56,120 nt of DNA from Catajapyx aquilonaris (Eukaryota). Positions 13,627-39,644 of this stretch are shown here, one piece after another. The notes under the pieces were generated by a model that made no database searches, was not told the origin of the DNA, and was given only the letters and a program-made list of their open reading frames with translations. How positions within the stretch are numbered: position 1 is the first letter of the stretch; each line of letters opens with the position of its first letter. Position numbers and translations under genes: made by a program. Location of the stretch: positions 1-56,120 of the forward strand of contig JYFJ02002480.1 in the NCBI GenBank assembly GCA_000934665.2. The letters run 5' to 3'.

Positions 13627-16600
13627 ATGGGCTTCCATAGTGCTGCGAAGAATAAGGAACACAAAGGAGATCATCGGATTTCACTACCGTCTAACACATC
13701 CTCACTTGACTCCAGGGTAAGCACATTGCAACACAATACTTAATCATGACATGGCTCGTACAAGATGGAGAGAAAGTCTAGGTGTACATCATGGTGAGTT
13801 ATTGTGATGCTCCTTGACGAATTTTTGGGATTTGGATGACGTCACAATTGTCGTTTGTTTTGGCGGATCTAATGGTGTAGTTATCAGCGGACAATGTCCC
13901 ATTCGGTGGATTTAATGGCTTCCGGTTGCTCTTGAATCCATTTCCGGTAGATTTGTTCACTCAGGCAATGAATTCTCACAATTTGTTTCTGGCAGGTTAG
14001 TAACGAAGGTTAAAAATTGGGCCTAACCGCAATCAACTACTAAGTGTACCCCGGTTGATTAAGTTGCGAAAGGTCCTCATCTGACCATAACCCTCCCCGG
14101 AAACAATGGTCGATTGTTACCAGTTTGATCATCTATTCAGCGCCAGGCGTTCCGCCATGGACCTTTGATGAAACTTGCGGTCATGCCACAGCCTTCACCT
14201 CTCTAATGACCACAATGTCCCTTTCCCCCACGATAAGAAAAAAAAACTTACTCTTTGTACCTTTCACCAATAAAAGGCACAGGTTTGCTGGAACCATCTG
14301 ACATGATCGAGCCAAAGAATGAGTGACAAACAGGTATGGCGAAGGACAGACAATCCGCTTTCACCAAAAATCCTCATGGATCTAGACTACGATCAGCCCT
14401 TTTGGTCCGATGATCTCGGGTTCCTTTTAGGCTAGAAGACATTGAGTAAGAAAAAAAAAACTCTTTCTGCTCTACATAATCCACGCTTAAGACCTACTAA
14501 GCTCAATCTGAAGCATATGTACTCGCTCTCATCGAAAGCGATTCGTGACATAATTATAGGGTAGGGTTAATATCACGTACGTTTTTGGTACGGAACTGTC
14601 TCCGGAACATCGGAACGTTATCGAATGTAGGTCTTCTGCAACTGATGGTTGATGGGAAAAGAGGGCGTGGAGAAGACATTATATTACTAGAACCATTTGA
14701 AGGTCATGTTGTACAATACTCCAACTGTTCATTGTTCATTGGACATTGACTCCTGATATGAATAGTCTATCAGGAAAGTGACAACACAGTGCTTGCATTT
14801 AACGACATTATTAAATGCATTGCTCCGAATAAACTATTCGCCACACCTGGCAGAGTATTGTGACATAAATGCTTGCATTAAACGCAATTTCGCAATACGG
14901 TAGTACAGTAATATCCAGTAGCTCGAGACCCACTGCCTATTTGTCAGTCTGTTTTGAATGGATTCCCACGCATAAAGGATCTTGAAACAAGCAGGGCGTG
15001 ACCCTAGTGGTAATTAACATGGGCTGTGAGAAGAAGTGCTTCGGGCGAAAGTGTCGCTTTTCTTCTCAAGCACCGACGAGGACACAACAACAAAAAGCCA
15101 CAAATAGGACCTCCCTCAAACGGTCTAGTAAACACCAAATTTTTTTATAATATCCTTCCAGTACTCTGATCCACCTGGCCAACTGTACTACCGCAGTGCT
15201 AGTTCATCATCCGACGGAAGTGACATTCGGTTTACCAGAAAAAAGGGATGCCCTAGAAAAGTCTGTCTTTGCATCACCTCCGCGGTCATCTTTGTCCTCC
15301 TGGGAGCAGCCGCTGGGATCTACTACGGATGTAAGGATATACAATTGTCTCCATTGTCCATCTTGTAATATTGACATATTCCAGATCATTTGTTGACGCT
15401 GGAGAGGCCGCTGGAGAAAGTGTTTCGAGGCAGCTTCCGCGTCATCTCCGGGGATGTGTTCCAGATGTCTTTGGTTGATCCGGATACTCCGGAGTTTCAG
15501 TCCAGGTCAGCAGAGTATAGGAACTTCTTGGACACTGTCTTCCGGGACAGTGGAGTCAAGGACGCCTACTTGTCCTCGGAGATCCTTGCTTTCGATGGGT
15601 AAGAATGAGTTTTTTTTTTGTATGGGTAGACGGATCATTCGAGAATGTGGTGCTTGCTCATCCGGGTGTAAAAATAGGACGGGTATGATTAATCAATGTG
15701 TTTGTTTATCCCCTTTTATCGATCTGTTGTCGTGCACATGCAGTACGTGCCAATATCATATCTGTCAAGTGAGATTTGAGATGGACACATTCCGGATATT
15801 ATCTGATATCAATGAAAGGAGACATTGTCAATAAACACTGCGAAATATTTTCCGTAAATAAAGTTAGCAATACGAAGGTTATTAGCATTAAACGTCAGGT
15901 AAATTAGTTTTGGTCTCAATTGCAATGAAAGGGGTATTTTTTGGTCGGAAAATTGAAACCTTGCTCCTGAAAGGGTTAGGGGTGAGTTACCGCAAGACCT
16001 CCTTCGTTCTGGTTGTTGAGCATCCTTAATTAGCCCTGCACATTGACCTTCAGCACGGAAGAGCAAGACCTTATAGTTCACTTCAACCTCCACGTGGATA
16101 CCAACAATCACCAAATTGAAGCACATGACCTGCAAGTTATGCTATTGGATGCGATTGGTCACCATCCAACGGGACATCATGAGCTGATTGTGGACGAAAA
16201 CAGCGTCCAATTGCAAGGTAAATCATATGCAAAATATGTCATGATTTGAATGTAAAACAATTACTGATCAGAAGCTGACCATTTACTCTTCAGATGATTG
16301 GTAGCATCCAAATTATCTGATAATTAGCAAAGCAGACAGACAGTATCAGCATTGTAAATCACATTACTTGTGTAATCTGATTTACGATTATTATTCCCAT
16401 CGCTTTATAACTGTCGAGGGTTTGACCCACATCTTTGCATGCATTGTTACAGAAAGAAAACATGTTTATGACGAATTCTCAACGGGGGATAACCCAGAAG
16501 CTGTGGGTCAAGACGGCGATGGCTTTGCCACAACAACACTTCCTCCTCCACGGAAGTGTGTCCCCCTAGAGGTCAACTATTGTGCAAGGCTTCGATACAA

Positions 16601-19600
16601 CCTGACGTCATTTCCAAACCATATCGGGCACAAAGATGTTTCCGAAGTTGCTCAAGATTTTATCTCCATGAGGTGTGTACTGGCCTCATTACTTATACAT
16701 ATATTACTGTATGTTCATTAATTATTGTTTAATAACAACATATCTTGGCAGGGAAATAATTGACGCCGAATGTTACGAATCAGCGTACGAATTCATCTGT
16801 CAGCTGATTCAACCTAGATGCGATATAAGGAGTGACAGCGACGAAGATGGTGTGGGTGACATAGTTTTGCAACCTTGTCGATCATTCTGTCAAAACTTTC
16901 TTGCCGGCTGTGGCAAGCGGCTTCCACCAAAGTTAAGAGAAAAGCTCGACTGCGACCTATTTCCTGAAAGCGACTGTGTGGGCGAGCCAGGTAACGAACC
17001 ATTCACAAAAGTTCTCAGGGCGAACAGTTCTGACAGTTATGTCACCTCCAGGTTGTGTGGAAAAGTTACAAGGAAAAGGAAAAGGACACCGGGTGTGCGA
17101 CGGAGTCATGGACTGTCCCGACGGCACCGACGAGTCCCAGTGCGCATACTGCTCACCTAACCATCGACACTGTGGGGTCGGTGACGTGTGCCTTCCAACA
17201 GAAGCACAGTGTGACGGTGTTGTCGACTGTCCCAACTCCAGCGACGAAAGAGCATGCTGTAGGTACATCACCGGGAGTCATGTGCCAGGTCATTTGATTG
17301 GTTTTCTGTTGCAGTGACCGTGGCGGCCAGTGCAGAAGAAGCCAGGTCGTCGTACGTCTATTCCAGAGAAGGCTTCGTCATGTTCCACGAAAAGGGCCTG
17401 AAAGGGAAACTGTGTGCTGATGCCCTCAACGGTTCTTCGGACCTGCCAGATGTGCTAAACAACGTCGGGGCATCCACCTGCAACCTGTTAGGATACAGGT
17501 GAGTTGATGCTGTGAGAATCTCACTTCGATTGTTACAGGATGACATTTACAGATCGCTGGAATCGGTGAAGGTTGTCGATGACAACGCTGTTGGCAACGA
17601 CTACATCCAAATGGTCAGACCGACTGAGGCGTCCATTTCATTCGCAAAAGGAGAGTGCGACTCTAGAAGAGTTGTGCACCTCACATGTTCCGATTTGGGT
17701 ATGTCCACATGTGTAAATGTAGTTTTCAATACTTATTTGTTGTGTCTGATGTCTTGCAACAGAATGCGGTATCCGACCAGGGAGAACAGAGCGAGAGGAC
17801 GAAAGTCGCATGGGTGTGACCTCTGCCAACAGCAGAAGAGTAGCCCATGGTGACTGGCCCTGGGTGGTGGCTCTATTCAAAGACGGAGTCCACGTGTGCG
17901 ACGCCAGCATGGTCACCTCTCGATGGTTGTTGACCACTGCCTCTTGCTTCTTGGGACAGCCCAAGGCCCGGTGGGTGGCCCGGATGGGGACGGTCAGGTT
18001 GGCCAGCCCCGGGTCACCTTGGCAGGAAGAGCGTCGGGTGGTCGGGATGGTCAAGTCTCCGGTGGAGGGCAGCGCCTTGGTCCTGGTCAGGATGGACAGC
18101 GACGTGCCCTTCTCAGACTACGTCCGGCCCGTGTGTTTGCCAGCAAGCACGTTGGAGGTCAATCAGTCCAACTGCGTCACTCTGACATGGACAGTCAGGG
18201 GTGACCAACTGAATGAAATGTACCTCCGGACATCAGGGATGGACACATGTCAAAATATCAGCATCACGTCCCACAACAGCATCTGCATGGAGCCCAAGTT
18301 CCATGACCCAGACTGCAAGGTGAGGAATGCAAAGCTAATTCCAGATAAGCAATCAAGATCAGAAAGCTCTTGCGCATAGGTATAAAATAGTTAAATAACA
18401 AAGGGTAGTTCCTGCCAACTGTTTTATGGTTCATAGAGGTTTATGGTGCGCTTGACCAGCAGCAATTTCATACCTTGCACGAAAGGACTGTAAACATCCT
18501 GTTATGGTTACAGTGACCCCACTGTATCAGTATGGAGATTTTAACACGTTGTTGAACCATAGCAGAAAAATGCTAGGAGAATACAGTATTTTAAAGCATT
18601 CATAAAAGTAGTTACGAGTAGTTAATAACAAGGTATTTATATGAAACGCTTCGAAACATTTTAATACATGAGATATGATATTGATAGATTTATTGGCAAT
18701 AATTATGCATTATGCATTATCAAGAGCTAATGGCATTATGCATTACTGATACTATAGTGATTCAATATATTCCATCTGGGCGCGGGAAGGTCATACAAGT
18801 ATCATGCAGATCAGGGTCATAACAGATGGAATGTAGCCTGTACTTGTAGTAAGTTGGTTAACAACCTGAAATTCTGATCTCGGGTTGTTACAGTAGCATG
18901 AGTGTTTGCACCTATTCTGGGCCTAGGATAGAATATCATCATAGAAAAGGTTAACAAGCCAGAAAGTTGAAGGACAGCATCCTGTTGGCGATGATTGGCA
19001 GGCTGCAGCAATATATAGGAAAGGCTGGGGACGAAAACGCAGCACGCAATAAGTTAACACTGTTTTCACATGTGATCATATCGTTATTTGACCATGGATT
19101 AATGAGATATGGGTAGAAATGCAGTCCAGTAATTAAGGTTTCATCAGCAAAATTACAGTGGCCGGTGGAGCAGATTACTCCATATTACAGGGTATATTGT
19201 GGATCAAAGTGATGATTTCTTCCATTTATGCAAATGATCACATTGTTACGGGAGCCTGCACCTGTACATTACATCATCCCCAAGGACGCTGGAGGATTAC
19301 AAATGTCACAGATATCTAAACGACAAAAACCAGTAGTCATAAACGGATTATGCCATTCAGTTCTGAACAAATATTTAATGCATATATTACTTGTTTTCTT
19401 CAGGTAACTCGTACGATTCAAAAATATAATGCCAATGTTCGTGTAATATAAAGTTGCATAATTTTCTTCGTGCGAGTTCTTATCAATCATTGTCACTCTC
19501 GAATTACTGTACTGTACCAAAACTAATCGATCGCATCTTTAGGAAGTTTATAACATTAATATATTGTGCGTTGCACGCTGTACGTACGGTATTGATCAAA

Positions 19601-21544: not shown

Positions 21545-23659
21545 ATGGGTCTGAGGGAGGTGGCTCGAAAGGTGAACCGCAGGAAGAAGCTTCAGGAGGA
21601 CTTCTTGGCCACACCGCTGAAGAGATGTCTCAACGCTTTCGATCTCACCCTTCTTGGTATGCTCCTATCTCCAAACATTTAGTCATGATCTAATATGCAT
21701 TGTTCTACAGGTATTGGGCATATGATCGGTGCTGGTATCTACGTATTGGCTGGATCAATCGCTCACAGTATAGCAGGTCCTGCCATCGTGATATCCTTCC
21801 TGGTGGCGGGTGTGGCGTCCATTTTAGCTGCCCTTTGTTACTCCGAATTCGGGGCACGTGTACCTAAAGCCGGATCGGCGTTTATGTACGGTTATGTGAC
21901 GATCGGAGAACTGATTGCGTTCCTGATCGGATGGGATTTGGTGTTGGAGCATTTGATAGCGGCCGCGTCGGTGGCCAAGGCGCTGTCCGGGTACATCGAC
22001 GCCCTGACAGGGTACGTGATCAGCAATGGTACAGCCGCCGCGGTTGGCCATCTCCACGGCGAGTTTCTTGGCCCCCAGCCGGATTTCCTGGCACTTGCAG
22101 TGGTCACCCTGTGCTGCGCGGTCCTGGCCACAGGGGCCAAAGGGTCGGCGCGGTTCAACACCACGTTCACCTTCATCAACCTGTCAGTCATGGCCTTGGT
22201 CATCATAATGGGGTTTGTCTACGCCGAGACCGGCAACTGGACCTCGGAGAACTTCATGCCGTACGGATGGAAAGGGGTGATAGCGGGGGCGGCTGCGGTG
22301 TTTTACGCCTTCGTTGGATTTGACACCATCGCCATCAGCAGCGAGGAAGCTCTGGAGCCGCACAGGGCCATACCGCTCTCCACGCTGGTCTCCGTCGGGG
22401 TGGTCACCGTCCTGTACACGCTGTTCAGCTCGGCCCTCACTCTGATTGTGCCTTATTACGATATTGTACCTGAGGCGGCCATACCCGAGGCTTTTGCACA
22501 GAGAGGAATCACATGGGCCAAGTATGTGATCACCATTGGGTCAGTAGCAGGGATGTGTACCACCATGTCGGGAAGTCTCTACTCCCTGCCCAGGTAGGCT
22601 ACAGAGCACGTGAAGTGTCGTTCAGATATGTTACCCATTTTCACTCGAGTTTGTTGCATAAACCAGTGGTTTTATACATTTCAGGGTTTTGTACGCAATG
22701 GCTTCGGAGGGCCTTCTCTTCAAGTGGGTGGCATGGGTCGAGCCACGCACCAAGCTGCCCCTTTTGACCCTTGGAGTTGCTGGGTTTAGCGTAGGTATGG
22801 TGGCGCTGTTCCTCGACCTGGAGAGACTGGTGGAGTTCATGAGCATTGGTACCTTGGCCGCCTACACACTAGTCAGTGCCTGCGTCCTACTGCTTAGATA
22901 TCGCCCACCTGCCGAAGAAGCAGCCCTTGAACTACGACCCAAGTTTAGCGGACTGCATGACCGAGGAGTGTTCCGATGGGACTGTCTCCCATTGGCGTCC
23001 GTCGTTGTGTTTGTGCCTGTTTCACTAGCCATGTGCTTCCTTGTCACATATGCAGGTGACCTCATTGTTGATGGAGACGCGTGGGCAATTATTCTTCTAG
23101 TGCTTCTCTTGGCAGTTCTAATCAGCTGTGAGTATTAGTCTGATCTGAGGAAATAAGCCGTTTCTGTCGTTGCTCCCAACTCAGTGCTGCAGATAAGGCG
23201 TTTTTCTTCCCCAAGAGTTTCGGTAACTGTATGAACGACATTTTCATTTCTCCTTTAGGTTTGATTATCATGGGTATGTACGAGCAAAACGTATCTGGAC
23301 TTCAGTTCAAGGTGCCGTTTGTTCCATTATTGCCGGCGCTCAGTATACTTTGTAACCTCTGGCTGATGACCTATCTCAATTCTGTCACGTGGATTCGGTT
23401 CCTCGTCTGGATGATTTGCGGTAAATTGAAGGTGGAGTACATTATCTGTTGACAAAATTATTGAATGTTTTTGTTGTTTCCAGGCTTGCTGATCTACTTC
23501 TGTTATGGAATCAGACATAGTAAACAGGAAGGAGTGGATATTTCCAGAGATGGTAGTGTTCAGATGAATCCCATGTCGTCGAAGCAAGCCAGCAACGGTT
23601 CGCCACAAAAAGACAGTGGATCACCGGAGAAATCGAATGGGTTGCCAGAAAAATTCTGA
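21545..23659 (+). CDS. Cationic amino acid transporter (SLC7A/CAT family, CAT-4-like). Exons 21545-21656, 21711-22593, 22685-23127, 23259-23420, 23484-23659
   Basis: LKRCLNAFDLTLLGIGHMIGAGIYVL, LCYSEFGARVPKAGSA, FYAFVGFD, EFMSIGTLAAYTLVS, FKVPFVP and TWIRFLVW are CAT-family motifs. Many TM segments; GT-AG introns in phase. Confidence 0.93.
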
Positions 23660-24538: not shown

Positions 24539-25185
24539 CACAAGGCGTGCGATGCAGGAAAAGGCAATTTCCTCTGTGGGCGGCGTGGCAACCTTTCCGT
24601 AACCCCATCGCATATTTTTTCCATTTCCACCAGCAGTGTTTCCACACGGTCTCCTCTTTTCACTCCTTTTCCGGCCCCATTCCTTCTGCGGTTCCCCTCT
24701 TGCGGTTTGGTCTCACCAGAAGAGGAGAAAGCAGCCTCCGATGCGGATGGTCGGACCAGCTGCAGGTATGCACTCGCTTCCAATATTGTAGGTCCGTGGC
24801 TGATGGCACTCATTTTGGGGTGGCCAGCTGGGTCACGTCCCTTCCATGTCAGGTGGTGGGGACTGTCCAAATGTTGACACTCGCACTCAGAGCACACATG
24901 TTGGCCGTCTTGTTTGCACAGCCAGCTGTCTAGGGAGTTGGCCAATGGCCGGTCACTCATCTCTCTTCCCTGCCTGCCTGCTCTAGAGTGTCACTGCACC
25001 TTGTTCATTACAAGCACAACTTGCAAGTGAAGTGTCTAGTTACTTCCCCTTGCTTCCACCGACAGTGGTATTTGGCATTGTTTGCGTGCTGGGGAGAATT
25101 TGAGCTCTCCCCGAGAGCTATCATGACATGACACATGTAGGCTACTCTTTCTTTCAGTTGAAACTTATCTTCTACACGTGGCTTG

Positions 25186-28100
25186 ATGACAACACTGCCC
25201 ATGATGCCAGCTTTTAGCCCTCTGGTGGGTGTTGAAAATGCATCACCATCATCGTCTACTTCCTCAAGTCCCCAGCAACCTGGGCAGCATGTGTTTGCCT
25301 CAGAGTCGTACGCTACACAAGTGCTGCGCCGACTGGATGCCCTCCGCCGCTCCTACCACTTTTGTGATGTGGAGATTGTGTCTGAGGGGACCCTGATTCA
25401 TGCCCACCGAGCAGTGTTGGCAGCCTCCAGCCCATACTTCCAAGCCATGTTTGCTGGAGGCCTGGCGGAGGAGCAACAGACCCGGGTGGTGCTGCGGGGT
25501 GTCTCACCTGCCACCCTCACACTCCTGGTGGAGTTTGTGTACTCTGGACGCATCTGCCTCACCCAGGACAATGTGCAGGAGCTGATGGTGGCTTCTGACA
25601 TGCTGCAGCTTGGAGAAGTTGTTGAAGCCTGCACTGAATTCCTCAAAAAGGAGTTGCATTCTTCAAATGCTCTTGGCATATACAGGTTTGTTCAGGGGGT
25701 GGGCCTTACTATCTTATAATTTCCTCAATAATTACAGCAAATATGATTTAGATTTTAGAATAATGACAGTAAAGCAAAATGCTAAAATAATCCTGTGCCA
25801 TGCTGAAAAAATTTATTTACTCAGAATGCATTGCTAATTTGTAGTTGTAGCCAGATTACGTTATAACTAGTTCACTGATGGTGAACAGTTTGCTGCAATT
25901 TGTTTCAGGGGGTAAGTAAAGAGGATTATTGAAATATTTGTGTACAGATTCCACTTCATGTTGTAGTGTAATGCAAATTGAAGAATATTATGACACAGTA
26001 TGTTGGTTGGTTGGTTGGTTTTTAGGGAAATGCCTGGCTTGTATGGCTCTTTCGTATTGAGCCTTGGCAGCCAGGGGCCAGGAGTGTTATTGACCCTCCT
26101 TAGCCGGTGGGGCTGGGTAGGATGAGGATGATGTGGGTTGGAAGGGGTTGGACGGGGACGGTATGACACAGTAAACTGACCACCTACAGAAGAAGCTACA
26201 ATGCAGTGTTGTGGTGTATGGCAGTTTTGATTTTGAACATTCCTGGGTCAATCTTGAGAAGAGCGTGAAAGTGTGGTGATTGAGGGAATGTATATTTTGG
26301 CCTGTGTGTATCACCACCATGCCAATGAAAATACATAAAATATGCAAGGCTGACAATAAAAAGAAACAAACATAGGAGGAAATGCACGTGTCATGTGTGA
26401 GATGTACCAGATTAAGCCATACTGACATTTCATCACAACTGTTTCTGAGAAAAAAGTAAAATGAATATTGAAGTAATTTTTGTTTATGGCTTTCTCTCCT
26501 CCCTTTCTGTGTGAGAGTCAGGTCAGATGCAGCACCGTGTTCCTTGGCCTGCATTTGCATGGCAGGTTTCTTAAATATTCGAAATATTCAAGGCCAAAGA
26601 TTGATGGGTGTAGTGACACAGGAAAATTCATGGATTAACATAATTTAATGGTGACTGTGGCAGGGGAGACGGAGTGGCGCTGCGCCGCTGCGGTAACGTA
26701 TGCGCCCACGGATGTTAAAGTCCCGGGTTCGATCCCAGCCCGGGGACACCCCCTTCATCTCGTGCAGAGTTCGGGGTCATCTCTGACTTCGTCTCGGGGG
26801 GTATTTCCAATAGACTAAACCACCCGGGGGAGTTCACAAAATGACCACAGCTACGACATTGCACTGCACCTTGCACATCCCCTCCTGTCACCCTGCCCGT
26901 GGGCCCGGGCTTTCATTAAATAGGCACCATGTACTTAACATCTTAAAATACAATAAAGGTCCATGCCATATACCCCGGAAGGGGTGAAAGCATTACCCAC
27001 ACATTATTAATTATTATTAAATTAATTAATTATTATGGTGACTGTGGTAACTCTTGTAACAATGAGCAATGTATGACTGAATTATGCATATTTGCACTGC
27101 AGGTTTGCAGATGGACATAACTGTGATGATCTGTCCCATTCAGCACTGGAGTACATTCACCAGCATTTCTCAGAGGTTTGCCAGGAGGAAGAGTTTTTGG
27201 AACTTCCTCAGGAGGTTCTGATATCACTATTGAGCAGTGAATCACTCCAAGTCGACTCTGAGTTTCAAGTTTTCTCTGCAGCTCTGCGTTGGATCTCAAG
27301 CTCTCCAGTGCAACGACGGCGCTATGTGTTTGAGGTTCTGCAGCACGTTCGTATCCCATTAATTTCCAGGACTCTACTGGAACGTGCAGTGGAACAGTGT
27401 GGGGACACTTCTCTGAAGGTGGCACTTCAGAGTATTCGCAAAGATATGTGCAGTGGGAAGGGAAGCCTGGTGCAGCTGTCAGTGCAGCCACGGAGATGTG
27501 CTAAGAAAAATATATATGTGATTGGTGGGTCTAAGCGGGAACTGGCCAGTGCATGGACACGTTTGTCAGAGTGCACGTACGACACAGTCCAGTGTCTGGA
27601 CACACACCGAAAAGAGTGGCGTGGAGTGGCCTCTATGCGCATAGGGCGAATCTTGCCAGGGATTGCTGCCCTGAATGGAGTTATATATGTGGTGGGTGGG
27701 GAACAGGAGTCGCAGATCTTGGCTAATGGTGAGGTGTACCATCCCCAAGAAGACTGTTGGACCCCAATGGCTAGCATGCTGATTCCACGATGTGAATTTG
27801 GACTGTGTGCACTGGATTCATGCTTATACGCATTTGGTGGATGGGTTGGTGAAGACATTGGCGGAAGCATTGAGAAATACGACCCAGCTGTAGACGGGTG
27901 GCATCTGGTTGGTAACATGCCTGAGGCACGATTCAGCATGGGGGTTGTGGCGCACCAGGGCCTGATTTACATTGTGGGTGGATGTACACATCAGAGGCGT
28001 CACATGCAAGAGCTTGTGGCATACAATCCTGTAACTGGTGAGTGGAGTGTGCTGTCACCCATGCTGGAGCCCCGAAGTCAGATGGGTGTTGCAGTCCTGG

Positions 28101-28408
28101 ATGACCACTTGTACGTGGTGGGTGGATCCAACAAGACAGAGGTACTCAAAACTGTGGAACGCTACAGCTTTGAGCGAGACCAGTGGACCCAAGTGGCACC
28201 CATGCATGTTGGGAGAGGGAGCCCTGCTGTGGCAGCCACTAATGGCCACCTCTACGTCATTGGAGGAGACCAGACCCATGAGGTAAACTTTTACAGGGCC
28301 CAAATCACAATTGCAGATGTTGAGTATTATGACCCAGAGACGAACACTTGGCATGAGTGTGTGCCACTGGCAGAGTCCAGGAGTGAGGCTGGGGCAGTAG
28401 TGCTTTGA
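25186..28408 (+). CDS. IPP: BTB-BACK-Kelch protein, actin-binding protein IPP/KLHL27-like. Exons 25186-25685, 27103-28408
   Basis: BTB FCDVEI...AHRAVLAASSPYFQAMF, a BACK domain, and six kelch repeats (YVIGG, YVVGGE, YAFGGWVGEDIG, YIVGG, YVVGG, YVIGG). YAFGGWVG is IPP-like. The intron is phase 2 and in frame. Confidence 0.88.
26661..27034 (+). mobile_element. tRNA-derived SINE with 13-bp target-site duplication
   Basis: TSD atggtgactgtgg at 26648-26660 and 27035-27047; B box GGTTCGATCCC at 26726-26736; A-box-like GGAGTGGCGC near the 5' end; (ATT/TTA)n tail. Confidence 0.85.
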
Positions 28409-30325
28409 TCTGTGCCTCCGCCCCAGTACTACACCCAATATGTAACTGTATTTTACACTGGTCAACTTGTAGTAGATAATGGTGCTGTGCCTCCAAAGAA
28501 GATGGGACACTTTTTCACATGTGATTTGATAATATTACTTCCATGATAATATTATAAATTACTACACTATTGAATTTTCATACCAACCAAGAAGAAATGC
28601 TGAAGTTCTGTAGATCAAGGAATTGGTTGGCTTCTCTCCGATGCTATACTATGATGGTGAATAATCAACACGTTACCAATTCAGGGTGTAATTAAAATGT
28701 TATTTGGCTTTGTTGATGAATCCGTTGGAAATTTATATAATGTAGAGGTTTTATTTGAGCAGATATTTGCATCAATATTGCATAATTGATAATGTTATAT
28801 GTTGGTTCAGTGCAATATTTTTTTGATCGTACATGCACGCCTAATCATCTAAAGAGCAAGGCAAATGAATTTAATGTGAAAGTTACATTATTGCATATCT
28901 AAAAAAAATACTCATATAGGTACAAAAGCGTGACTTTCAGGTGAATGCAATTAGTGGCTGCAAAGAGTAAGTTTTAGTAGTTTTAGTGAGGAAGTCTGCA
29001 ACATTGATCAGTTGGTAAATCAACAGCTGAAAGGCATCCTCATATTAATAAAATAACGACATGATACTACGAATGAAAGAACAGTGCTGATCAGTCGACC
29101 ATACCATAACTAGGCATTTGACTGAGTTATGATCAGTGTAGTAATCAAGTTTGCCTGGGCAAGCCTGGTAATGTTTTTGCATCATTTCTTGACTGTTGCT
29201 TCCATATTAGTGTAGCTATAACATGCAGTAGTTATGAAACATATTTCGTAGTTTTCACTTAGAATATCTTTGTGTGGCAGCTAAAAAACTGACTGTACGA
29301 ACTTGCAGTGGTTAAGGATAGACATGACAAACAATACCTTGATGAAGTGCATAAATTTTACCAAAGAAGAGAACCCAAGAGTAATGATATTAACAAGGTG
29401 CCTGTGTTTTGTACATAATTGATGTTGTCACAGGGACTGTTGTGTGATTCCAGTTGCAAATTTACATTAGCTAAGACGTGGACATATTTCAAGTACTGTG
29501 TCATTTCTCTCAAATATTTACACACAGAAGGTGATGTAATTTTGACATGAATGATCGAATATGACAGCGTATTTCCATGACCTTCCATGCCTTTTTGTCT
29601 GAAGAGTCATGCATGATCATGTTTTTACATCTGTTTGCATATAAATTTATGTTCACATGTTTATAGCAGCTGCTGCTTACATGAATGTAGATGTGTAATT
29701 ATACATGCACATGTTAAGTATCTTGCCACTCATTGGAAATGCATTGCAGTTAACTAAATGGGCACCTGGTTTTATTGCAGCATTTTAAATAATTTCAGAG
29801 TATACCTACCCACCTTCATGATCAATCTCTGCCATCGAGATGAAGAATGTGCAGTCAAAGCAACTCGATTTTTCTCTGCAAGTAGATTTATGTTATATGG
29901 GGACTGTACGAAGAGTGACCTTCATCTTTATGCATGTGGGGACAAGGTTACCATTTTCTCCCACACCTGGGAAAGGAGCTGGGTTCTGCTGGGGAGGCAG
30001 ACGTGTACAGGGTGACTCAGAACTAGAGGTCAAACTACTGCCAGTGTACTCCTAGTTTAATTAAGGCGGACGAGAAACGCTGCCTTAGTGGCGATAGCGG
30101 AGTAGTCAAGCTACTAGGGGCATAGAGGGTTGTCACACACAAAATGGTGACACACTTTTTAATACAGAATGGTGTGTCATATGACACAAAAACGTGTCGA
30201 GCAATGTTGTCAACGCATTTTTTTGTAAAATGACGCAACTGTGTGCCATGTACCATGTTATATGACACTCCATTTCCTAATTACCTTTTGTGCATAGACA
30301 CACCAAAACTTGTCAACTGATACAC

Positions 30326-30446
30326 GTTTAGGTTTGGTTTATTAGGAAGGAGACAAAGCGACTGCGGCTATCTGGCTATCAGAAGACACAAACCAATGTG
30401 GTTTAAACCAGCCAAACCCTGCCACACACTAAAAGAACAGACACAC
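30326..30446 (-). mobile_element. Probable 3' tail of a non-LTR retroelement abutting the truncated lipocalin-like copy
   Basis: The minus strand ends ...cctaataaaccaaacctaaac (simple-repeat tail). Paralogue homology is lost at this point. Confidence 0.35.
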
Positions 30447-30454
30447 TAGTTTTC

Positions 30455-31078
30455 CGATACACGCGTCACAATCATAAATCTCGTCTCTAATCTCGAAAGG
30501 GTGTGATCCCTGCTGAGTGACTCCGAATAATTCTTTGCAGCAGCTGAAAAATGCAAGTGTACTATTGCATTACTGGTAATGACGAAGGGTTGGATTCAGG
30601 TGCAGGGTTTGTCGTGTGTAACCATAATACAGTGCACTGTATAATGATCCCACATAATCAAGAGTAACTGTACAATTCACGAAGAAAAGTAACGCTACAC
30701 TTAATTCCCACACACAGCACCAGCAGGCAGTCAAGTGAAATAAAAACACACTCTGTGGCGTTGCACTGGAAAGATGCCAAAATTCTCATTGTCATTCCTC
30801 TTATGTAATCTGGCTGATTGAATGGAAAATATCGAGAAATGTCAAGAAATTGGCACTTTGTTGTACTGTCAGTGGTGTATACATTGCTGTCCAGTTGCCT
30901 ACATTCTGGGAAAGAGAGTGGATGGCTATTAGAAATGATTGAATTGCTTTTAGTTGAAATACCTCTAGCTTTACCGGGCATCTATCGAAGGCTTGACCTG
31001 GATACTTTCCGCAGATATTAAAATAAGCAACGTGCACATAATATGCACATATAGAGCTAGATGAAACATGAGCCTCAT
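30455..31078 (-). pseudogene. Lipocalin-like copy A, pseudogene. Exon remnants 31078-30975, 30905-30752, 30543-~30455
   Basis: Homologous to copies B-D. Exon 1 is 104 nt (others 102) and exon 2 is 154 nt (copy C 152), each with a 2-nt insertion. Exon 3 homology stops after EIYDCD and exon 4 is absent. Confidence 0.85.
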
Positions 31079-32567
31079 TTTCTGCACTGTGAAAGAATCG
31101 GCGGCCTAATGGTAAGAGTAATTATCATGCGTCAGAGAAGGGGAATTCGTTACTGATGTACAAAATGTGCTATAAAGGTTACCCTGTACCTTAATCTCTT
31201 TGTGGAACCATTCACTTGTGCACGGTGACGATATTCTTGTAAAAGCCGGTGGTCAAAAGACTTTGAGGAAGTTTGTAATTCCATCTCCACTAACAGTAAG
31301 ATGTGATTATGTGCCGCTGTGGCAAAGAGGACGAATCTGTTTTTTCTACAAAATATGCATAATGTCAAGGTGAAACCAGTTGTATGTTGACTGTAGCCAG
31401 CTGTAGCCTACTCTTGAAACACCTGGTAAGAGGAAGGTAATTGGTTAAAAGTTAATTGTTTGAATCCTTTACATTTATACACATCTGTTGCATTATAAAA
31501 AAAAGCATTTATTACTTTTTACAACTATATTTTCAACCATCGATTACCGAGAGCAGATACTTAAATGAACTACGCCTCAGTCGAACTTAGCTCTCGAATG
31601 GAATTTTGCGCACGCTTCACAAATGTCTATCCTTTAATCCTTAGATTTTTGGCAATTGAAACACTACTTATTCCTTCATAAATCAGTAGGTTCGTTTCTA
31701 ATCACCCTAAATAATGATAATTAAGTAGGAAACATTTTGTCACATATAATTTTTGGCACTTCTAACGTTCTAAGAGCTGTAACAATGGTATCCTATCTAT
31801 CGTGAAGCCTTTGCCTTCTGATTGTTCTGAACACTCAAAATTTCTAGGTGTGCTTCAAGGCCACTCAATTTTCAATTATTCGATTACTATCCTTAGATGT
31901 AAGGAGAACAAAAATCTTCTCTACTTCCCCTCAGCCTTCCCCCTCTCTTTACTGCGTTGAAATAAAGTGATTGAACTGTGGGATACGCTTTCAATTAGTC
32001 GATATTTCACATTTTCTCAGCGACGATAAGAGAACCAGTGACGGAATACCCTGAAACAACAGAGCCATTGCTTGAGTCTGAGTTGGTAAATTGCTCCTAC
32101 ATCACCACCCCCTCGCCTTCCATTATACTATTGGTTTCAGTCTGGCAATTTCAACCCGTAAGCGATATATTTGACTCTCAACTTGGTGTTAAACCTTCAA
32201 AATTGATTTTAATATTGCTCCTAACTCTTCTCATCACTTTTGTGTAGCCTACGTGTAAGTTACTCATATCCTATGCAGACATAAATTATTATTATTTGTT
32301 TTAGGAGGGACATTACGTTGATTTTTTTTCATCCAAAGGCAACGTTTTAAACCCTTAAGAGTGAATGGAGAAGCGACACACTCAATGGACTAGATTGTTC
32401 CTTATTTTCCGAGAGTTAAAGTTTCGCAAAACCTTGCAACAATGAATCATGGGACACAAGAAATATATTTCAAACACCCACAATTAATTGCCGCTGTTTA
32501 TTTTTGTCTCAATTACATTCATCCTTCATATAACAATACAGCAACAACACCTCAGGGAATGACCGTG

Positions 32568-33835
32568 CTAAGGGCACTGTGGTCGTAATAAAAACTGACT
32601 GCGGTAACAGTATGTACAGTCGGCATCATCACTGCTGTAAAACATTTCACCTGGAAACATATTTTTCGCAATTGTAAGACCTTCTTGTGCAGCAGTGATG
32701 TTACACAAATCTCTGACATAGATTTCTGTCTTCGTACCTAAAAGAAAGGGATACATACTATAAGTATTAGCACAAGTCAAAGGCGTACTCAGAAGAATTA
32801 TTATTAGACTACTTACCACCAAGTAAATAATACCACTGTATAATCATATAGTTACAATAATCAGTTTTTGGAATCTCTATGTTTTCAAGGTCGCGAGGAA
32901 AAGGCAACTCTAAGGGTCCATAACATGGTGTCTCTTTTTTGCATATAGTTATGTTCATGGATGAGCCACCCCAATAGCAGTCCTCTTTCTTTCCACAATG
33001 ATGACTACAAGCGATCATTCGTAGGAGGTCACCCAAGGTACTTTGCTCTCCTGTACATTCGGCACAAGTACAATCATAAACCTCATCTCTTTGCTTGATA
33101 AGGTCTGATCCCAGCACAGCGCCTGCAAGTTTACCTCCGCAGCATCTGAAAAATACAATGGTACCAGGTACTACTGTATTACCGGTAATGCCGCAGGGTT
33201 GGACGGAGGTCCACAATATTATTGGTTGTTTATAATCATATGGAAAATGGCCAATCGTAATCAAGGGTAACTGTGCACTTCACATAGAGAAGTAACAATA
33301 CGCTTATCAAATTATTGGTGCCACTTTAAAAATCATAATTATGTTGGGAGATCCTGCATTACTTGGGGTCTGACATAGCCATTGTTGCTAAATGTTCACT
33401 CTGGGTTCAGGAGTAGGTTAACGGAACATAAAACACTAAAATAATCAGTACAAATGTGCCTAAAGATTACAGTAGAACAGACAGTTAACTGATTTAAAAC
33501 GCACTTACTTGTCTGTGTCTTCGCATTTGTAAGATTGCCAAATTCTGTTTGTGTATCCTCTAATGGTATCTTTAACTCCGTTTGGATAATATCTGGCAAT
33601 GTCGAGAAATTGGCACTTAATTGTATTGTCAGTGCTGTACACTGCTGTCCAGTTGCCTACAATCTGGGAAAGAGAGCCGATGGTTATTAGAAAAATAATG
33701 GAATTTCTATCAACTGAAACATCTCTGACTTACGATGCTTCTATTGAAGGCTTCACCTGGATACGTTCCGCAATAATTAGAACGAGCAACTTGCAAAAAA
33801 TATGCGCAGAAGACAAAGTGAAAGAAATGCTTCAT
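32568..33835 (-). CDS. Secreted Cys-rich lipocalin-like protein, copy B (251 aa). Exons 33835-33734, 33663-33509, 33145-32817, 32737-32568
   Basis: MKHFFHFVFCAYFLQVARS-NYCGTYPGEAFNRSI|IVGNWTAV...IEIPKTDYCNYMIIQW...TEIYVRDL...CTYCYRSQFLLRPQCP*. Open 756-nt frame; GT-AG introns in phases 0,2,1; AATAAA at 32497-32502 (minus). Confidence 0.85.
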
Positions 33836-34509
33836 ATTTTCTGCACTCTGTGAACAGGAGCGTCTGTAACAAGCGTTGTTCACCAGCGAATAGTCTCGAC
33901 GAAGTGAAGAATCATGCCCCAGATCGCTGCCACATCACATCAAACCGAGCCTTCTAGCAGAACACCTGCGAATTTCAACCAGATTGAACTGAAATCGTTC
34001 AACTCCAGCTACACACCTGCATATCTGTTACTTTTCTTTGCAAGAATAATGGATGAAAGAATTGGCCAATGCTAAATGAAGAATAATAAATTATTGAACA
34101 TGGCTGGAATAATGCACTGTATTGCTATGGTTGACAAGATACATTGCAGGTACATCATGTCAGCCCAGAATAGTTCACATATATGCTACAGTTGAGTCAT
34201 GCCCAGTCAGGTGCAAGGCATATGCTGTAGCAGGTCCCTCTTATTTCCTTCTCTGTGTCATCACGAACCCCCGTCATGCTGGTTGCCATACTCTACATCC
34301 CGTATGCAAATTATTGTAAAAATAATATGTGAGCAATCCGTTACAAAAAAAATAATAATAAATTTGTTCGAAGAATTTTACTACCACTCGTGAGGGATCA
34401 GAAAATTGATACTTTAGCGCTACCTATTAGATATGTATTGAGTATGTAGTGTAGAATAGCCTATGTAAACGTCGGGTGGAGTCGGGTGTTGTTGTTGGTT
34501 CATTGGGAA

Positions 34510-34839
34510 CATGCGTTCTTATTGTCACCAGGGAGGGGGAGGAAGCCAATGAAAACCCACAAATATACAGAGAACTTATCAAACTTTCCACATGATTCGG
34601 TTTACTGGGGAGAACCAGAGCAACTGAGGCTATCTGGATTAGAGGTAAGGGTGATGAGAGGTTTTCGGACAGGGAAAGAAAATGTCAAAACCCCGAGAAA
34701 ATCCGCGTGAACACTGGGAAAACACGTCGATACTCGATACCCTTTTCATGTGATAAAATATTTTGTCCGGGATACACAAGTAATTCTGGAACACAGAGGT
34801 GGAAGGTTGTGACCCTATCCACTGCACCAGCCAGAACCC
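34510..34839 (-). mobile_element. Decayed tRNA-derived SINE remnant(s) between copies B and C
   Basis: Minus-strand head gggttctggcTGGTGCAGTGG (A box). Body has gaaaacccac/gagaaaatccgcgtgaacac SINE-like motifs. Absent from the paralogous intergenic blocks. Confidence 0.4.
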
Positions 34840-35121
34840 ATAAGTCTCCATAATTGAGAGCAAGAAAAGTTCCCAAACAGAATAATATGGGGGTAATGAT
34901 ATGCTCTGCAGCCACAAATTATTATATTTGATTTTGGAGAAAACCATTCAGAGTGAATGGGGAAATGCTATTCTCAGTGGACATTATCGTATATATTTTC
35001 CAAACGATAAAGTGTCGCAAAATCTTGCAAAAAGAAACCATAGAGAACAGGTATAACACGCGAAAAATGCTTTTCCAACACCTACATTTAATTGCCACAG
35101 TTTATTTTTGCCTCAGTTACA

Positions 35122-35166
35122 CGAAGAAGAAGAAGACGACGACGACGACGAAGAAGAAGAAGACGG
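35122..35166. repeat. Compound (GAA)n(GAC)n(GAA)n microsatellite
   Basis: Seen directly; lies in the 3'UTR of copy C. Confidence 0.85.
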
Positions 35167-35210
35167 TAGCCCTACTTGATTACATATCAGCGAATGGTCC
35201 TGCTAAGCCG

Positions 35211-36296
35211 CTAAGGTATGGGGACGCTTCTGTAACAGTAAGTGCAGCTGCCATCATCACTGTTGTAAAAGGTTATGTTTGAGTACTTTCTCTTCGCAAT
35301 TTCCAAAGCTGTAGTTGCAGCAGTACTGTTTGACAAATTTCTGACGTAAATTTCAATTTTAGTATCTAAAATGAAACGATACATCAGTATTAGCACAAGT
35401 GAAAGTCATATGTAGAAGAATACAGACGCAGTGCGTATAGTAATAAATTACTTACCAGCTAAAAGGCCGTAACGATACTCTACAATCATATAGTCGCAAT
35501 AGTTAGTTCCTGTAACCTCCACGTTTTCAAGCTTGAGAGGAAGAAGAGAAAACTCGAAGCCTCCTGCACATGGGTTCTCTTTTTTGCCCAAAGTGACGTT
35601 TCTGGACTGGCCACCCCAAAAGCATGCCTTTTTATCCACACACGAATTACAAAACAAATTTTGGAGCAATACAGTCAATAGACCCGCGTCACAATCATAC
35701 ACCTCGTCTCTCATCTCTCCCTGCTTAATGCCTCCAATTATTCCTTCCCCGCAGCTGAAAAATACAAGAGCACCACTGCATTACATGTAATGTCGTAGGG
35801 TTGGATGCAGGTGCACAATTGGTCATGTATAATCATATATGGAAAGTAGCCACACGTAACTGTGCACTTCACAAAGTAACACTACACTAATCTTATCAAA
35901 TTATTATTAGTGCTACTTTGCTACTTTCCATGCTCCATGCGCAGCTCAAGCAAGTGAACTACGTAAATACGTACTTAGTGTCGTTGCACCGGAAAGATGT
36001 CCAAATTCTGGTTGTCAATCCTCTTATGTAATCTGGCTGATTGGATGGAAAATATCTAGAAATGTCAAGAAATTGGCACTTTTTATTACTGTCACTGGTG
36101 TACACTGCAGTCCAGTTGCCTACAATCTGTGAAAGAGAGCGGATGGATAGTAGTAATTATTGAATTACTCTCTTCTGTAATACCTCTGGCTTACCAGGTT
36201 TCTATTGAAGGGTTGATCAGGATACTCTCCGCAAATATTAGAATGAGCAACCTGCATAAAATATGCAGAGAGAGCTAGGTGAAACAAGAGCTTCAT
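35211..36296 (-). CDS. Secreted Cys-rich lipocalin-like protein, copy C (235 aa). Exons 36296-36195, 36126-35975, 35754-35456, 35365-35211
   Basis: MKLLFHLALSAYFMQVAHS-NICGEYPDQPFNRNL|IVGNWTAV...VEVTGTNYCDYMIVEY...IEIYVRNL...CTYCYRSVPIP*. Open 708-nt frame; phases 0,2,1; AATAAA at 35101-35106 (minus). Confidence 0.85.
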
Positions 36297-37481
36297 ATTT
36301 TCTGCACTCTGTGGACAGGAGCGTCTGTGACAAGCCTTGTTCACCAGCGATGAGTCCTGATGAAGTGAAGCAGAAAGACCCAGTGACTCTCCATTTTACC
36401 AGATTTGCAAAAATAAATCATAGTATATCCACCTGGTTGTGACATAAATGTCTGCTACTGGCAATCGTATACAGAACGACTGTAAATTATGTCAAGGTGG
36501 ATCTAAAATCGTCCTACTCCAGCTGCTGAGTTGCATGTACATGTACTCGTATAACATATTGTTCTGTAAGAATAATGAACGAAAAAATCGGCAGCATATG
36601 TTCACAAAGTGGCATCTGTTTCACCTTATTCATGTTCAGAATGTTTTGTGAAGGCTACGAGTCTCATCAAGGTCATATTTTATCCTGAGTGTGGAGGGCA
36701 ATCCCGCGAGACTCTCCATACTTGGGGGGTGGATTGATAGCTAGTCAGGATGACGTGAAGGACAGAGCAGTACGGTCGTTTTTGAAACATTTGATTACAT
36801 TTTGCTAAGCGAAGATGAGGATTTTGGCCAGATATGATGGCATCGCAAAATTTTCTATCCCTTGGCCACATGTGTAAGTTTCGGTTCACGTATGCTGTAT
36901 TTGGTTGAGTCATGCCAGCCAGGTGCGAGGCATATGCTGTAGCAGATCCCCCTGAATCATGCTATATTAAATCATGCCAGTTTGCATACTCTACTTTCCA
37001 TGCGCAGCAAATTATTGTAAAAGATGGGAACAAAAAAGAGAGTTTTACTAGTAGCCCACTTGATTCTGAAACAGAAGCGAATTCGCAGGATACACTCCCA
37101 TTTTGTTGGCATTTCACATTTTCGCAGCGACGATAAGAGTAATCAGCTTCATTACCCTGAACCAGATGTCAGAGACAGAGGCATCGCTTGTGTCTGAGAT
37201 GGGACATTGCCCATATGACACCAACTCATCACCTCTTCCTCTCACTCCAATGTTGGTAGCAGTATATACCATTGCCAACACTGGTATTGCGTGCTAAGTT
37301 AGCAGTAACTATCAGTGAGACGAAAATTCCACCCCTTGTCTTTTACCTTTTCCAAACGTTAAAATGTGGCAGAACTTTGCTGTAATAAACCATGGACACC
37401 AGGTCCTTACACAAGAAATTAACTTGCAAACATACAACTAATTGAGTCTGTTTATTTTTGTCTCAATTACATTCATCATTC

Positions 37482-37484
<3 letters not shown>

Positions 37485-37547
<63 letters not shown>
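37485..37547. repeat. (TAA)n microsatellite
   Basis: About 21 perfect units; lies in the 3'UTR of copy D. Confidence 0.95.
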
Positions 37548-37549
<2 letters not shown>

Positions 37550-37587
37550 CCAGAGTATAGTTGATTGCACCTCAGCGAATGGCCTTG

Positions 37588-38896
37588 CTAAGGTATGGGA
37601 ACACTATAGTAACAGTAAGTGCAGATGCCTTCATTACTGTTGTAAAAAGACTTCTCTGAGTACAATATTGTCGCTCGTTCGCGAGCGTGATTTACAGCAG
37701 TGTCGTTACCCAAATCTCTGACATAAGCCCCTACCTTCTTACCTACAGGAAAGGAATACATAAGTATTAGCAAAAGTGAAAAGAATGTATACCGAAGAAT
37801 ATGTACGGTATTAGACTACTTACCTGTTGTGAAACTATACTCTATAATAATATAGTTGCAATAGTCAGTTTCTCTAATCTTCACGTTTTCAAGGTTATCA
37901 AGTACAGGCACCTCTAGATGTCCAGCACATGGTGTCCCTTTTGGGCCTACAGTTATGTTCGTCACTTGGCCACCCCAATAGCATGCCTTTATATCCTCAC
38001 ATGAAATACAAGCGAAAAACTGTAGTAAGATTGCGAAAATGCCAGTAGCTCCGTCACAATCATAAAGCTCGTGTCTCTCCTCGACAGGGAACGGCTCTTC
38101 CCGATTGCCTGCTAACAATGTTTCGCAGCAGCTGGAAAAAAACAAAAAACAATGGTGCTATTGCATTACCGGTAATACAGAAGTGTTGGATGCATGTGTA
38201 CAGTACAGTACATCAGGCCTATACGTGTAGGCTACTTCAACGCGAACTGTCCACCATTGGAAAATAATCTGATAATTATTCAACAGGTGACACTTTGCAG
38301 ATTTGGACCAATAAGCAACTTAAATTGAACCAGAGTTATGGCTTTCTCTTATAGGTCGGCCCAACTTGTATACAGTATACGAGATGTACGTCCGGACAAT
38401 AAAAAGTCTGTCGACTTCAGTGTAAGCAAAAGGATAACGGTTAACATATTGTGAATATTCCGTGACAGAGAAAGAAGGACTCGAGGTCTGCATGACAGAT
38501 TCTAGCTGAAAATTTACCTCTTAGCACCAGCAGGGGGTAAAGTGAAATAAAACGTAGTATATACTTACTGCTCAGTGGACTTGCACAAGTAAGATAACAA
38601 AAATCTGGTTGTCATTCCTCTTGAATCAGCACCTTCGTTATTGAATGGCCAATATCTGTCAATGACGAGAAAGTGGCATCTTTTATTACTCTCGGTGGTG
38701 GACACTGCCGTCCAGTTGCCTACAATCTGGAAAACATAATGGACGGTTATTAGAAACGATTGAATTTCTATCAACTGAAATATCTCTGACTTACGAAGCC
38801 TCTATTGAAGTCTTCTCCTGGATACTTTCCGCAGAGATTTGCGCGAGCAACTTGCACAGAATATGCACAGAGAGCTATGTGAAACAAGAGCCTCAT
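37588..38896 (-). CDS. Secreted Cys-rich lipocalin-like protein, copy D (240 aa). Exons 38896-38795, 38726-38569, 38131-37824, 37742-37588
   Basis: MRLLFHIALCAYSVQVARA-NLCGKYPGEDFNRGF|IVGNWTAV...VKIRETDYCNYIIIEY...VGAYVRDL...CTYCYYSVPIP*. Open 723-nt frame; phases 0,2,1; AATAAA at 37451-37456 (minus). Confidence 0.85.
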
Positions 38897-39644
38897 GTTT
38901 TCTGCACTCTGTGAACAGTAGCGTCTGTGACAAACGTTGTTCACCAGAGGAGAGTCTCAATAAAGTGAAGAATCATTCAGCACTTTTCAGCCACATCAAC
39001 CTGTATGTAAAATGAACGCCGCGTGGCAATCTGCAAATTAGGCCTACAGCAATTGGAGCTGAAATAGTTCAGCTTCAACTACGCACCTGCACGTCTGTAA
39101 CATTGCTCTGCAAGAATAATGGATGAAAGAATTGGCAGCATATGGCAATGCATATTATCCTGTGACTAAGAACTGGAATCTCATTAAAATTAGATATTAG
39201 CCTGATATGAGATATAATGGCGTGGCAAAAATTTCAGTTCACGTATGCAGTGTACTAGGGTTGGGTCATGCCAGCCAGGTGCGAGGCATATGCTGTAGCA
39301 GATCCCCCTGAATCATGATCTATTAAATCATGCCAGTTTCCATACTCTACTTTCCACGTACAAATTATTGTAAAATATGGGAACAATCCGTTACAAAATG
39401 AGAGTTTACCAGAATACCAGTACTGCCTACTTGACTCTGAAACAGAATCGAATTCAACCATTTTGGCGGCATTTCACATTTTCCCAGTGAGAATTTCCCA
39501 GGAGAATCAGCGAAGAGAACCAGGTATCAGCGACCTGTTAACATGCAAGTTATTGAAGCAACAGATATTAATTATTACTCCACCACCAAACACAACACAC
39601 ACACTCCCATGTTATTGGCATATAAATGAGTGAGAGAATAATTT

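Follow-up and report, generated by a model that had tools for sequence, protein, structure and literature searches.

A tandem array of divergent, cysteine-rich genes with lipocalin-like motifs between IPP and Kidins220 in Catajapyx aquilonaris

Within a 56,120-nt stretch of the genome of the arthropod Catajapyx aquilonaris (contig JYFJ02002480.1 of assembly GCA_000934665.2, positions 1 to 56,120; hereafter the window), we find a tandem array of four head-to-tail units on the minus strand at 30.4-39.4 kb, with a start-to-start spacing of 2461-2760 nt. Three of these units, u1, u2 and u3, are established as intact and expressed genes, and the fourth, u4, is a frameshifted, truncated pseudogene. 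The three genes encode proteins of 240, 235 and 251 aa, respectively, which look secreted, share 12 conserved cysteines, and carry the cores of the three lipocalin motifs. Judged from their sequences, an assignment of u1-u3 to the lipocalins is plausible but not proven, and we place a probability of roughly 0.6 on the reading that the products are lipocalins that have diverged strongly, bear a Cys-rich insert and are secreted to bind small ligands.

The three intact genes have a common architecture of four exons each, in which all nine introns begin with GT and end with AG, and interrupt the frame in phases 0, 2 and 1 in every gene. Gene u1 (37588..38896) has its exons at 38896-38795, 38726-38569, 38131-37824 and 37742-37588, gene u2 (35211..36296) at 36296-36195, 36126-35975, 35754-35456 and 35365-35211, and gene u3 (32568..33835) at 33835-33734, 33663-33509, 33145-32817 and 32737-32568, with the stop codon included in the last exon each time. 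Exon 1 is 102 nt long in all three genes; of the introns, the first and third are short (68-90 nt) and the second measures 220-437 nt. An earlier note made from the sequence had described four head-to-tail minus-strand units, three of them spliced cleanly with GT-AG borders in phases 0, 2 and 1 into proteins of 251, 235 and 240 aa, and our gene models agree with it, including the 102-nt first exon. Searching the window with the spliced products (tblastn) returned the same four units and no others. Together with its repeated upstream and intergenic parts, the whole array covers 30422..39356 (minus strand), the direct-repeat families that run across it (D1-D14) have periods of 2461-2760 nt, and about 100 nt ahead of every ATG are conserved among the units.

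Evidence for splicing comes from X1, the sole public sequencing run that we found, whose kind is unrecorded and whose Logan contigs amount to 31.8 million letters in total; it contains 28% of the sampled words from a 6.3-kb stretch. Three X1 contigs of 894, 836 and 837 nt have joints at exactly the nine predicted introns (CT..AC on the plus strand), two of the nine fitting the gene model after equivalent shifts of +3 and +5. The 837-nt contig skips all three introns of u1 and has its 5' end at 39003, and the 836-nt contig does the same for u2, with its 3' end at 35174. For u3, the 894-nt contig runs from 33895 to 32490, again skipping all three introns; it starts 60 nt before the ATG and ends 78 nt past the stop codon, 12 nt beyond an AATAAA that lies 66 nt after the stop. 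The introns of u1-u3 are uncovered in X1. Joined, full-length contigs with exact GT-AG joints are the pattern of a transcriptome assembly, and because the kind of the run is unrecorded, this is strong evidence of RNA rather than formal proof. The earlier note had named spliced reads over the predicted junctions as a check, and with that reservation joined contigs are present for nine of nine introns. The X1 contigs cover neither u4 nor most of the intergenic DNA, repeats excepted, and we do not take this as silence. Directly downstream of u1 and u2 (37473-37557 and 35114-35170) there are a long microsatellite of the (AAT)n type and an A-rich tract; both stretches were treated as repeats and skipped in read placement.

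The products of u1-u3 are built alike. Exon 1 encodes 19 signal-peptide-like residues, with a basic residue at position 2, a hydrophobic core of mean Kyte-Doolittle value 1.41-1.75, and A-x-A or A-x-S at -3/-1, followed by C-G-x-Y-P-x3-F-N-R-x2; past residue 19, no further hydrophobic segment comparable to a membrane span is present in the three proteins. Exon 2 starts with I-V-G-N-W-T-A-V (motif 1), holds two conserved Cys, and is the best-conserved exon, at 74% mean column identity (alignment A2). Exon 3 (alignment A1) is the least conserved and the Cys-rich one, with seven of the 12 conserved Cys, and has T-(D/N)-Y-C-(N/D)-Y (motif 2) at its end. Exon 4 (alignment A5) carries Y-V-R-(D/N)-L (motif 3) together with a predicted helix and, close to the C-terminus, C-T-Y-C-Y. 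The motifs that the earlier note had quoted, CGxYP, IVGNWTAV, T(D/N)YC and YVR(D/N)L, were thus found in all three proteins. In the mature u1 product, the 12 conserved Cys columns fall at positions 3, 32, 63, 69, 93, 109, 112, 118, 136, 159, 211 and 214, and of the two conserved N-x-[ST] sequons one (N-W-T) overlaps the GxW motif. From these features, we predict that each product is secreted, N-glycosylated and disulfide-rich, with a mature length of 216-232 residues.

The three proteins have diverged considerably, with pairwise identities of 52%, 46% and 54%. Nei-Gojobori dN/dS values for the three pairs are 0.61, 0.80 and 0.69 at a dS of ~0.52-0.54, and nucleotide identity is no higher in the exons (0.65-0.79) than in the short introns (0.70-0.81). 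Because dN/dS lies at 0.61-0.80 and exons are no more conserved than the short introns, the proteins appear to evolve almost at the rate of neutral DNA, with the scaffold of cysteines and motifs kept. The suggestion that this is a fast-diversifying, secreted-looking tandem family holds up well against these values, the signal-peptide-like start, and the X1 contigs.

Unit u4 (30422..31078, minus strand) preserves an exon-1-like part at 31078-30981, an exon-2-like part at 30903-30755, and a partial exon-3-like part from 30543 to ~30422. Insertions of 2 nt near 31053 (exon 1) and 30884 (exon 2) shift its frame, similarity is lost about one third into exon 3, where there is an in-frame stop, and there is no exon 4; that only three of the four units were clean had been seen correctly in the earlier note. 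The nearest relative of u4 is u2, with 83-90% nucleotide identity in exons 1 and 2, as compared with ~75-79% among the intact genes in the same comparison. Because u4 and u2 are more alike than the intact genes are among themselves, and u3 lies between u4 and u2, a later duplication or gene conversion is indicated. Just past the broken end of u4, at 30124-30447, X1 depth is 38 with loose ends on both sides (30345 and 30384), which suggests that a repeated element is transcribed here and may have truncated u4. In addition, a 98-nt direct repeat upstream of u2 (36903-37000) and u1 (39259-39356) is 96% identical between its copies, as against 65-82% for the surrounding units, and could represent either a mobile element of recent origin or a segment homogenized by gene conversion. 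Related ORF-like pieces are found near 34197-34292, and similar translated pieces occur in each intergenic spacer. Arthropods commonly have fast-evolving secreted proteins encoded in tandem arrays, and we suppose that this one would have arisen in a restricted lineage by unequal crossing-over, leaving three transcribed genes and one decayed copy.

The case for a lipocalin relies on motifs, gene structure, and one fragment model. The cores of the lipocalin motifs are GxW, TDY and R (PMC3575496, PMC2254393; here and below, published systems are compared from excerpts of the cited papers). In all three proteins, GxW (I-V-G-N-W) occupies mature residues 16-20, motif 2 reads T-D-Y-C-N-Y in u1 and u3 and T-N-Y-C-D-Y in u2, motif 3 is invariant as Y-V-R-(D/N)-L, and the succession F-N-x5-G-x-W, T-(D/N)-Y-x-x-Y, Y-V-R is that of lipocalins. 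The spacing from F to W is nine residues, equal to that in the Escherichia coli lipocalin Blc (which has F-D for F-N), the Tyr of motif 2 is followed by the Arg after 21 residues (18 in Blc), and 42 residues separate the Arg from the C-terminus (34 in Blc). Among 200,000 composition-preserving shuffles per protein, 50, 62 and 92 had both T[DN]YxxY and a GxW in the first 30 mature residues, and none of the 200,000 had both when a stricter N-terminal motif was required.

With respect to gene structure, the intron phases are 0, 2, 1, 1, 1 in ApoM, Ptgds and an amphioxus lipocalin (PMC3184775), and the phases 0, 2, 1 of u1-u3 equal the first three of these; the comparison is one of phases and not of positions, and extends over the only three introns present here. 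Exon-intron structure is an accepted criterion for assigning divergent lipocalins (PMC2254393, PMC3695081). An AlphaFold2 model of the exon-4 fragment, with the u2 peptide as the query (the first row of A5) and u1 and u3 as the alignment, has a pLDDT of 73.5 and consists of a strand (4-7), a helix (13-26), and strands at 32-34 and 42-46. The residues just before the motif-3 Arg are modelled as strand. This order would match lipocalin strand H, helix and strand I, the packing of the fragment not being meaningful. A model of the exon-3 fragment, of low confidence (pLDDT 40.2), places motif 2 at a hairpin turn. If the assignment is right, each product would form an eight-stranded beta-barrel with the GxW strand at its N-terminus, the T-D-Y turn between strands F and G, the Arg in strand H, and a C-terminal helix, and ~56 Cys-rich residues would have been added between motifs 1 and 2. 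Such barrels would enclose small hydrophobic ligands outside the cell, and the paralogues may have diverged in the ligand bound.

On the other side, the fold drew no support from any statistical or structural test. The shuffle odds overstate significance, because the motifs were picked after being seen. None of the profile tests, which covered bacterial lipocalin profiles and single exons and are limited in sensitivity, detected a relationship. Ten single-exon peptides matched no lipocalin or calycin family in Pfam at E up to 10, the only matches being sub-threshold ones to DUF2389 and LPD7. We used two Blc profiles, one from 114 close relatives and one from 72 of 80 bacterial loci (two truncated at a contig end and six with a stop were excluded), and hhalign gave the three spliced proteins probabilities of 0.26% and 0.22% against them. 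Blc hidden Markov model (HMM) searches yielded no bit score for u1 and scores of -1.7 to -0.9 for u2 and u3, which 181-911 of 2000 shuffles equalled or beat, and after removal of the putative insert 118, 25 and 42 of 150 decoys still reached the real score. A narrower Blc profile from 20 sequences (A3) matches the solved structures of ApoD (3.6e-16), crustacyanin A2 (4.2e-10) and bilin-binding protein (1.4e-5), as well as sandercyanin, RBP, PGDS, NGAL and the cockroach allergen Per a 4, for a total of 57 distinct sequences at E <= 0.01. Because A3 reaches from ApoD to Per a 4, the u1-u3 family stands farther from Blc than any of these proteins and lies outside the sequence range of classical lipocalins. 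Profiles of exon 2 and exon 3 likewise found no lipocalin among the PDB sequences.

The dimensions and details of the proteins point in the same direction. From the Trp of motif 1 to the Tyr of motif 2 there are 138 residues versus 82 in Blc, and the ~56 extra residues include seven of the 12 conserved Cys and a helix in the low-confidence model. A lipocalin is expected to have ~160-200 residues with ~80 between motifs 1 and 2, and u1-u3 are larger in both respects. Classical lipocalin signatures require an aromatic residue, Leu, Arg or His after the motif-1 Trp, and this residue is Thr in u1-u3. The models of fragments offered no support either, and are best regarded as uninformative either way: the exon-3 fragment has the low pLDDT given above with a predicted helix in the insert, and a Foldseek search with the exon-4 fragment returned no lipocalin, with none of 500 matches at E <= 0.001 and all at E >= 0.85, the top ones being small alpha/beta folds of the ferredoxin-like and KH types. 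Of the earlier claim that the three conserved regions of lipocalins are present, the motif cores in their order and the phases 0, 2, 1 have stood, and a lipocalin or calycin profile match has not been obtained; of the checks that it had named, two gave no support, with no such match in the Pfam, hhalign or HMM tests that were run and no barrel predicted from the exon-3 fragment (pLDDT 40). As for other secreted families, CAP/SCP, thaumatin, phospholipase A2, ependymin and takeout/JHBP were set aside by inspection of their signatures, and the exon peptides have no Pfam match to them.

These points are also what would be expected if u1-u3 were an orphan family of secreted, Cys-rich proteins with another fold, for example a disulfide-stabilized effector, an antimicrobial or a matrix protein, in which the motifs and phases are coincidental. 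We regard this explanation as possible but doubtful. All profile-based tests being null is in keeping with it, as are the presence of 12 conserved Cys in ~220 residues and the 138 residues that separate motif 1 from motif 2, both unlike classical lipocalins, and a chance match of all three phases would have a probability of roughly a few percent (an estimate and not a computed value). The searches for relatives fit as well. In a search of 1.84 billion representative proteins, a profile built on the three exon-3 peptides picked up no true relative, the u3 exon-3 peptide gave 113 candidates among longer proteins of which none scored, and neither the exon-3 nor the exon-2 peptide had a usable match in the ESM Atlas. 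In JGI metagenome contigs, 164 matches to an exon-3 pattern and 131 to an exon-2 pattern were obtained, none of which was confirmed. The searches of large protein libraries used exon 3 only; their blank nevertheless carries some weight, because the collection includes arthropod proteomes and transcript-derived proteins. To the extent of the exon-3 profile, the family appears lineage-specific, as had been proposed, and no close characterized orthologues were seen. The single match in the 1.84-billion set (E 7.1e-4) was to a 633-aa tandem-repeat protein matched in five stretches, and was judged spurious. A literature search on cysteine-rich lipocalins brought up nothing apparently relevant.

On the other hand, an orphan fold does not easily explain why ordered motifs with Blc-like local spacing, which are rare in shuffles, occur in proteins whose phases fit a published lipocalin pattern (PMC3184775) and whose C-terminal strand-helix-strand follows the lipocalin order. 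In addition, outlier lipocalins such as the millipede hydroxynitrile lyase (HNL) evade sequence searches in the same way (PMC7983990). We continue to favor a divergent lipocalin, and compare it below with known members of the superfamily.

The kernel lipocalins of the ApoD, Lazarillo and Blc type (PF08212, PF00061) are secreted, as is predicted for u1-u3, and resemble them in having an N-terminal Cys followed by F-[DN]-x5-G-x-W, then T-D-Y-x-x-Y, an Arg ~20 residues on, a helix and a C-terminal Cys, and in their first phases 0, 2, 1. They differ in showing no profile similarity to u1-u3 and in an interval from motif 1 to motif 2 that is shorter by ~56 residues; the mean length of the ten lipocalins that PMC2254393 compares is ~170 residues, against the 216-232 mature residues here. 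Crustacyanins, the carotenoid-binding proteins of crustaceans, also have the GxW, TDY and R motifs, come from an arthropod host, exist as several paralogues, and are secreted, as is predicted for u1-u3 (PMC3575496). However, the A2 crustacyanin is matched by the Blc profile at the E value given above and u1-u3 are not, crustacyanins are ~190-200 aa long, and they have six cysteines compared with 12 conserved ones in u1-u3 (PMC3575496). The outlier lipocalins of ticks (histamine-binding proteins and Japanin) are similarly fast-evolving and lineage-specific, are secreted, as is predicted for u1-u3, and owe their assignment to structure and to introns conserved in position and phase, not to sequence (PMC3695081, PMC2254393). 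Unlike u1-u3, they are generally without the three motifs.

The closest precedent for the array is the cluster of millipede HNL paralogues, to which the exon-2 and exon-3 profiles show no sequence link. Arthropod lipocalin genes are often clustered (PMC8214410). The millipede enzyme ChuaHNL (PDB 6JHC) and its clustered paralogues are, like u1-u3, arthropod and Cys-rich products of a gene cluster with one truncated member, are secreted and glycosylated, as is predicted for u1-u3, and are likewise without BLAST relatives (PMC7983990, PMC12671775). The paralogues in this cluster are 11-21% identical to ChuaHNL and keep its eight conserved Cys, one of them being truncated (PMC12671775), and the enzyme itself, for which excerpts of PMC7983990 give no sequence relatives, was placed among the lipocalins by its structure. 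In the mature products of u1-u3, Cys 3 and Cys 32, together with the two Cys at the C-terminus, recall the disulfide bridges C3-C108 and C35-C152 of ChuaHNL (PMC7983990), though the pattern is only loosely alike. In contrast, ChuaHNL has 162 mature residues, eight structural Cys and barely recognizable motifs (PMC7983990), while the motifs of u1-u3 are clear and the proteins ~60 residues longer.

This analogy raises the question of whether u1-u3 could be lipocalin-fold enzymes or gland effectors, for instance in the manner of the millipede HNL or as ligand scavengers of saliva or venom, a specific role that we consider improbable. It draws on the millipede cluster, in which HNL paralogues conserve their Cys and some are enzymatic and some antennal (PMC12671775), and on dN/dS values of 0.61-0.80, which we would expect of environment-facing proteins. 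Against it, PDB searches with the exon-2 and exon-3 profiles, read as far as E 10, listed no HNL chain, the sole run X1 carries no tissue information, and catalytic residues cannot be named without a structure. That the genes are non-functional, as chance open frames or transcribed pseudogenes, deserves next to no credence: u4 is indeed a pseudogene, dN/dS is fairly high, and with the kind of X1 unrecorded the joined forms are not formally RNA, but the frames of u1-u3 are not chance, because all three are fully open over four exons, their products retain the 12 Cys and the motifs at an overall identity of 46-54%, every one of the three pairs has a dN/dS below 1, and exact GT-AG joints occur in three full-length X1 contigs with the intergenic parts uncovered except for repeats.

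The array lies between two genes that are readily recognized, and domain matches on both flanks corroborate the earlier placement between IPP and Kidins220. IPP, upstream of the array on the plus strand, has BTB, BACK and Kelch domains at 25162-28408 and relatives named "actin-binding protein IPP"; Kidins220, on the other side and on the minus strand, has Ank, KAP NTPase and SAM_KIDINS220 domains from 53451 down to ~46129. The two genes are convergent, with the array between their 3' ends. Among the 120 IPP relatives listed, all of those with an organism name are from insects or crustaceans, and the best identity is 69%, which identifies the host as an arthropod and, as far as the matches listed go, leaves it with no near relative in the collection searched. 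A single uninterrupted exon (27077-28408, plus strand; 443 aa) encodes the BACK and Kelch portion of IPP. Further genes were observed on the plus strand of the window. At 1012-1344 and 4373-4669 are exons of a beta-catenin/armadillo gene (Arm repeat, E 6e-10), the C-terminal one ending in W-Y-D-T-D-L. A corin-like mosaic protease gene occupies 16305-18379 (Frizzled, E 5.8e-12; trypsin, E 2e-17), and ORFs between its Frizzled and trypsin domains look by eye like LDL-receptor class A repeats. At 21689-23452 there is an amino acid permease gene of the cationic amino acid transporter type, with large exons (AA_permease_2, E 6.2e-31). A small gap in the assembly at ~55490 is marked by three N bases, which give XX in a translated ORF.

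Taken further, the divergent-lipocalin reading leads to a tentative proposal, to which we give odds well short of even: that u1-u3 represent a structurally novel form of the lipocalin scaffold, namely a barrel with a disulfide-knotted insert of ~56 residues (seven of the 12 Cys and the predicted helix), confined to one arthropod lineage and used for quickly diversifying, environment-facing binders or enzymes; the alternative is that the motifs are convergent and the fold wholly new. If the insert-bearing barrel is real, u1-u3 would join the millipede HNL cluster as an independent second example of arthropod lipocalins that evade all sequence detection. Whatever the fold, the array shows that very large protein collections can lack real, expressed genes whose first exon is 102 nt long. 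The array resolves no long-standing open question, and is of relevance mainly to specialists in lipocalins and arthropod genomics. A confirmed barrel would widen the range of the lipocalin scaffold to six possible disulfides and a large inter-strand insert, and three paralogues ~50% identical, together with a dead copy, would offer a natural series for following how a binding pocket diversifies after tandem duplication. For the biology of the host, the products of u1-u3 would be candidates for the carriage of pigments, pheromones or lipids, or for gland secretions.

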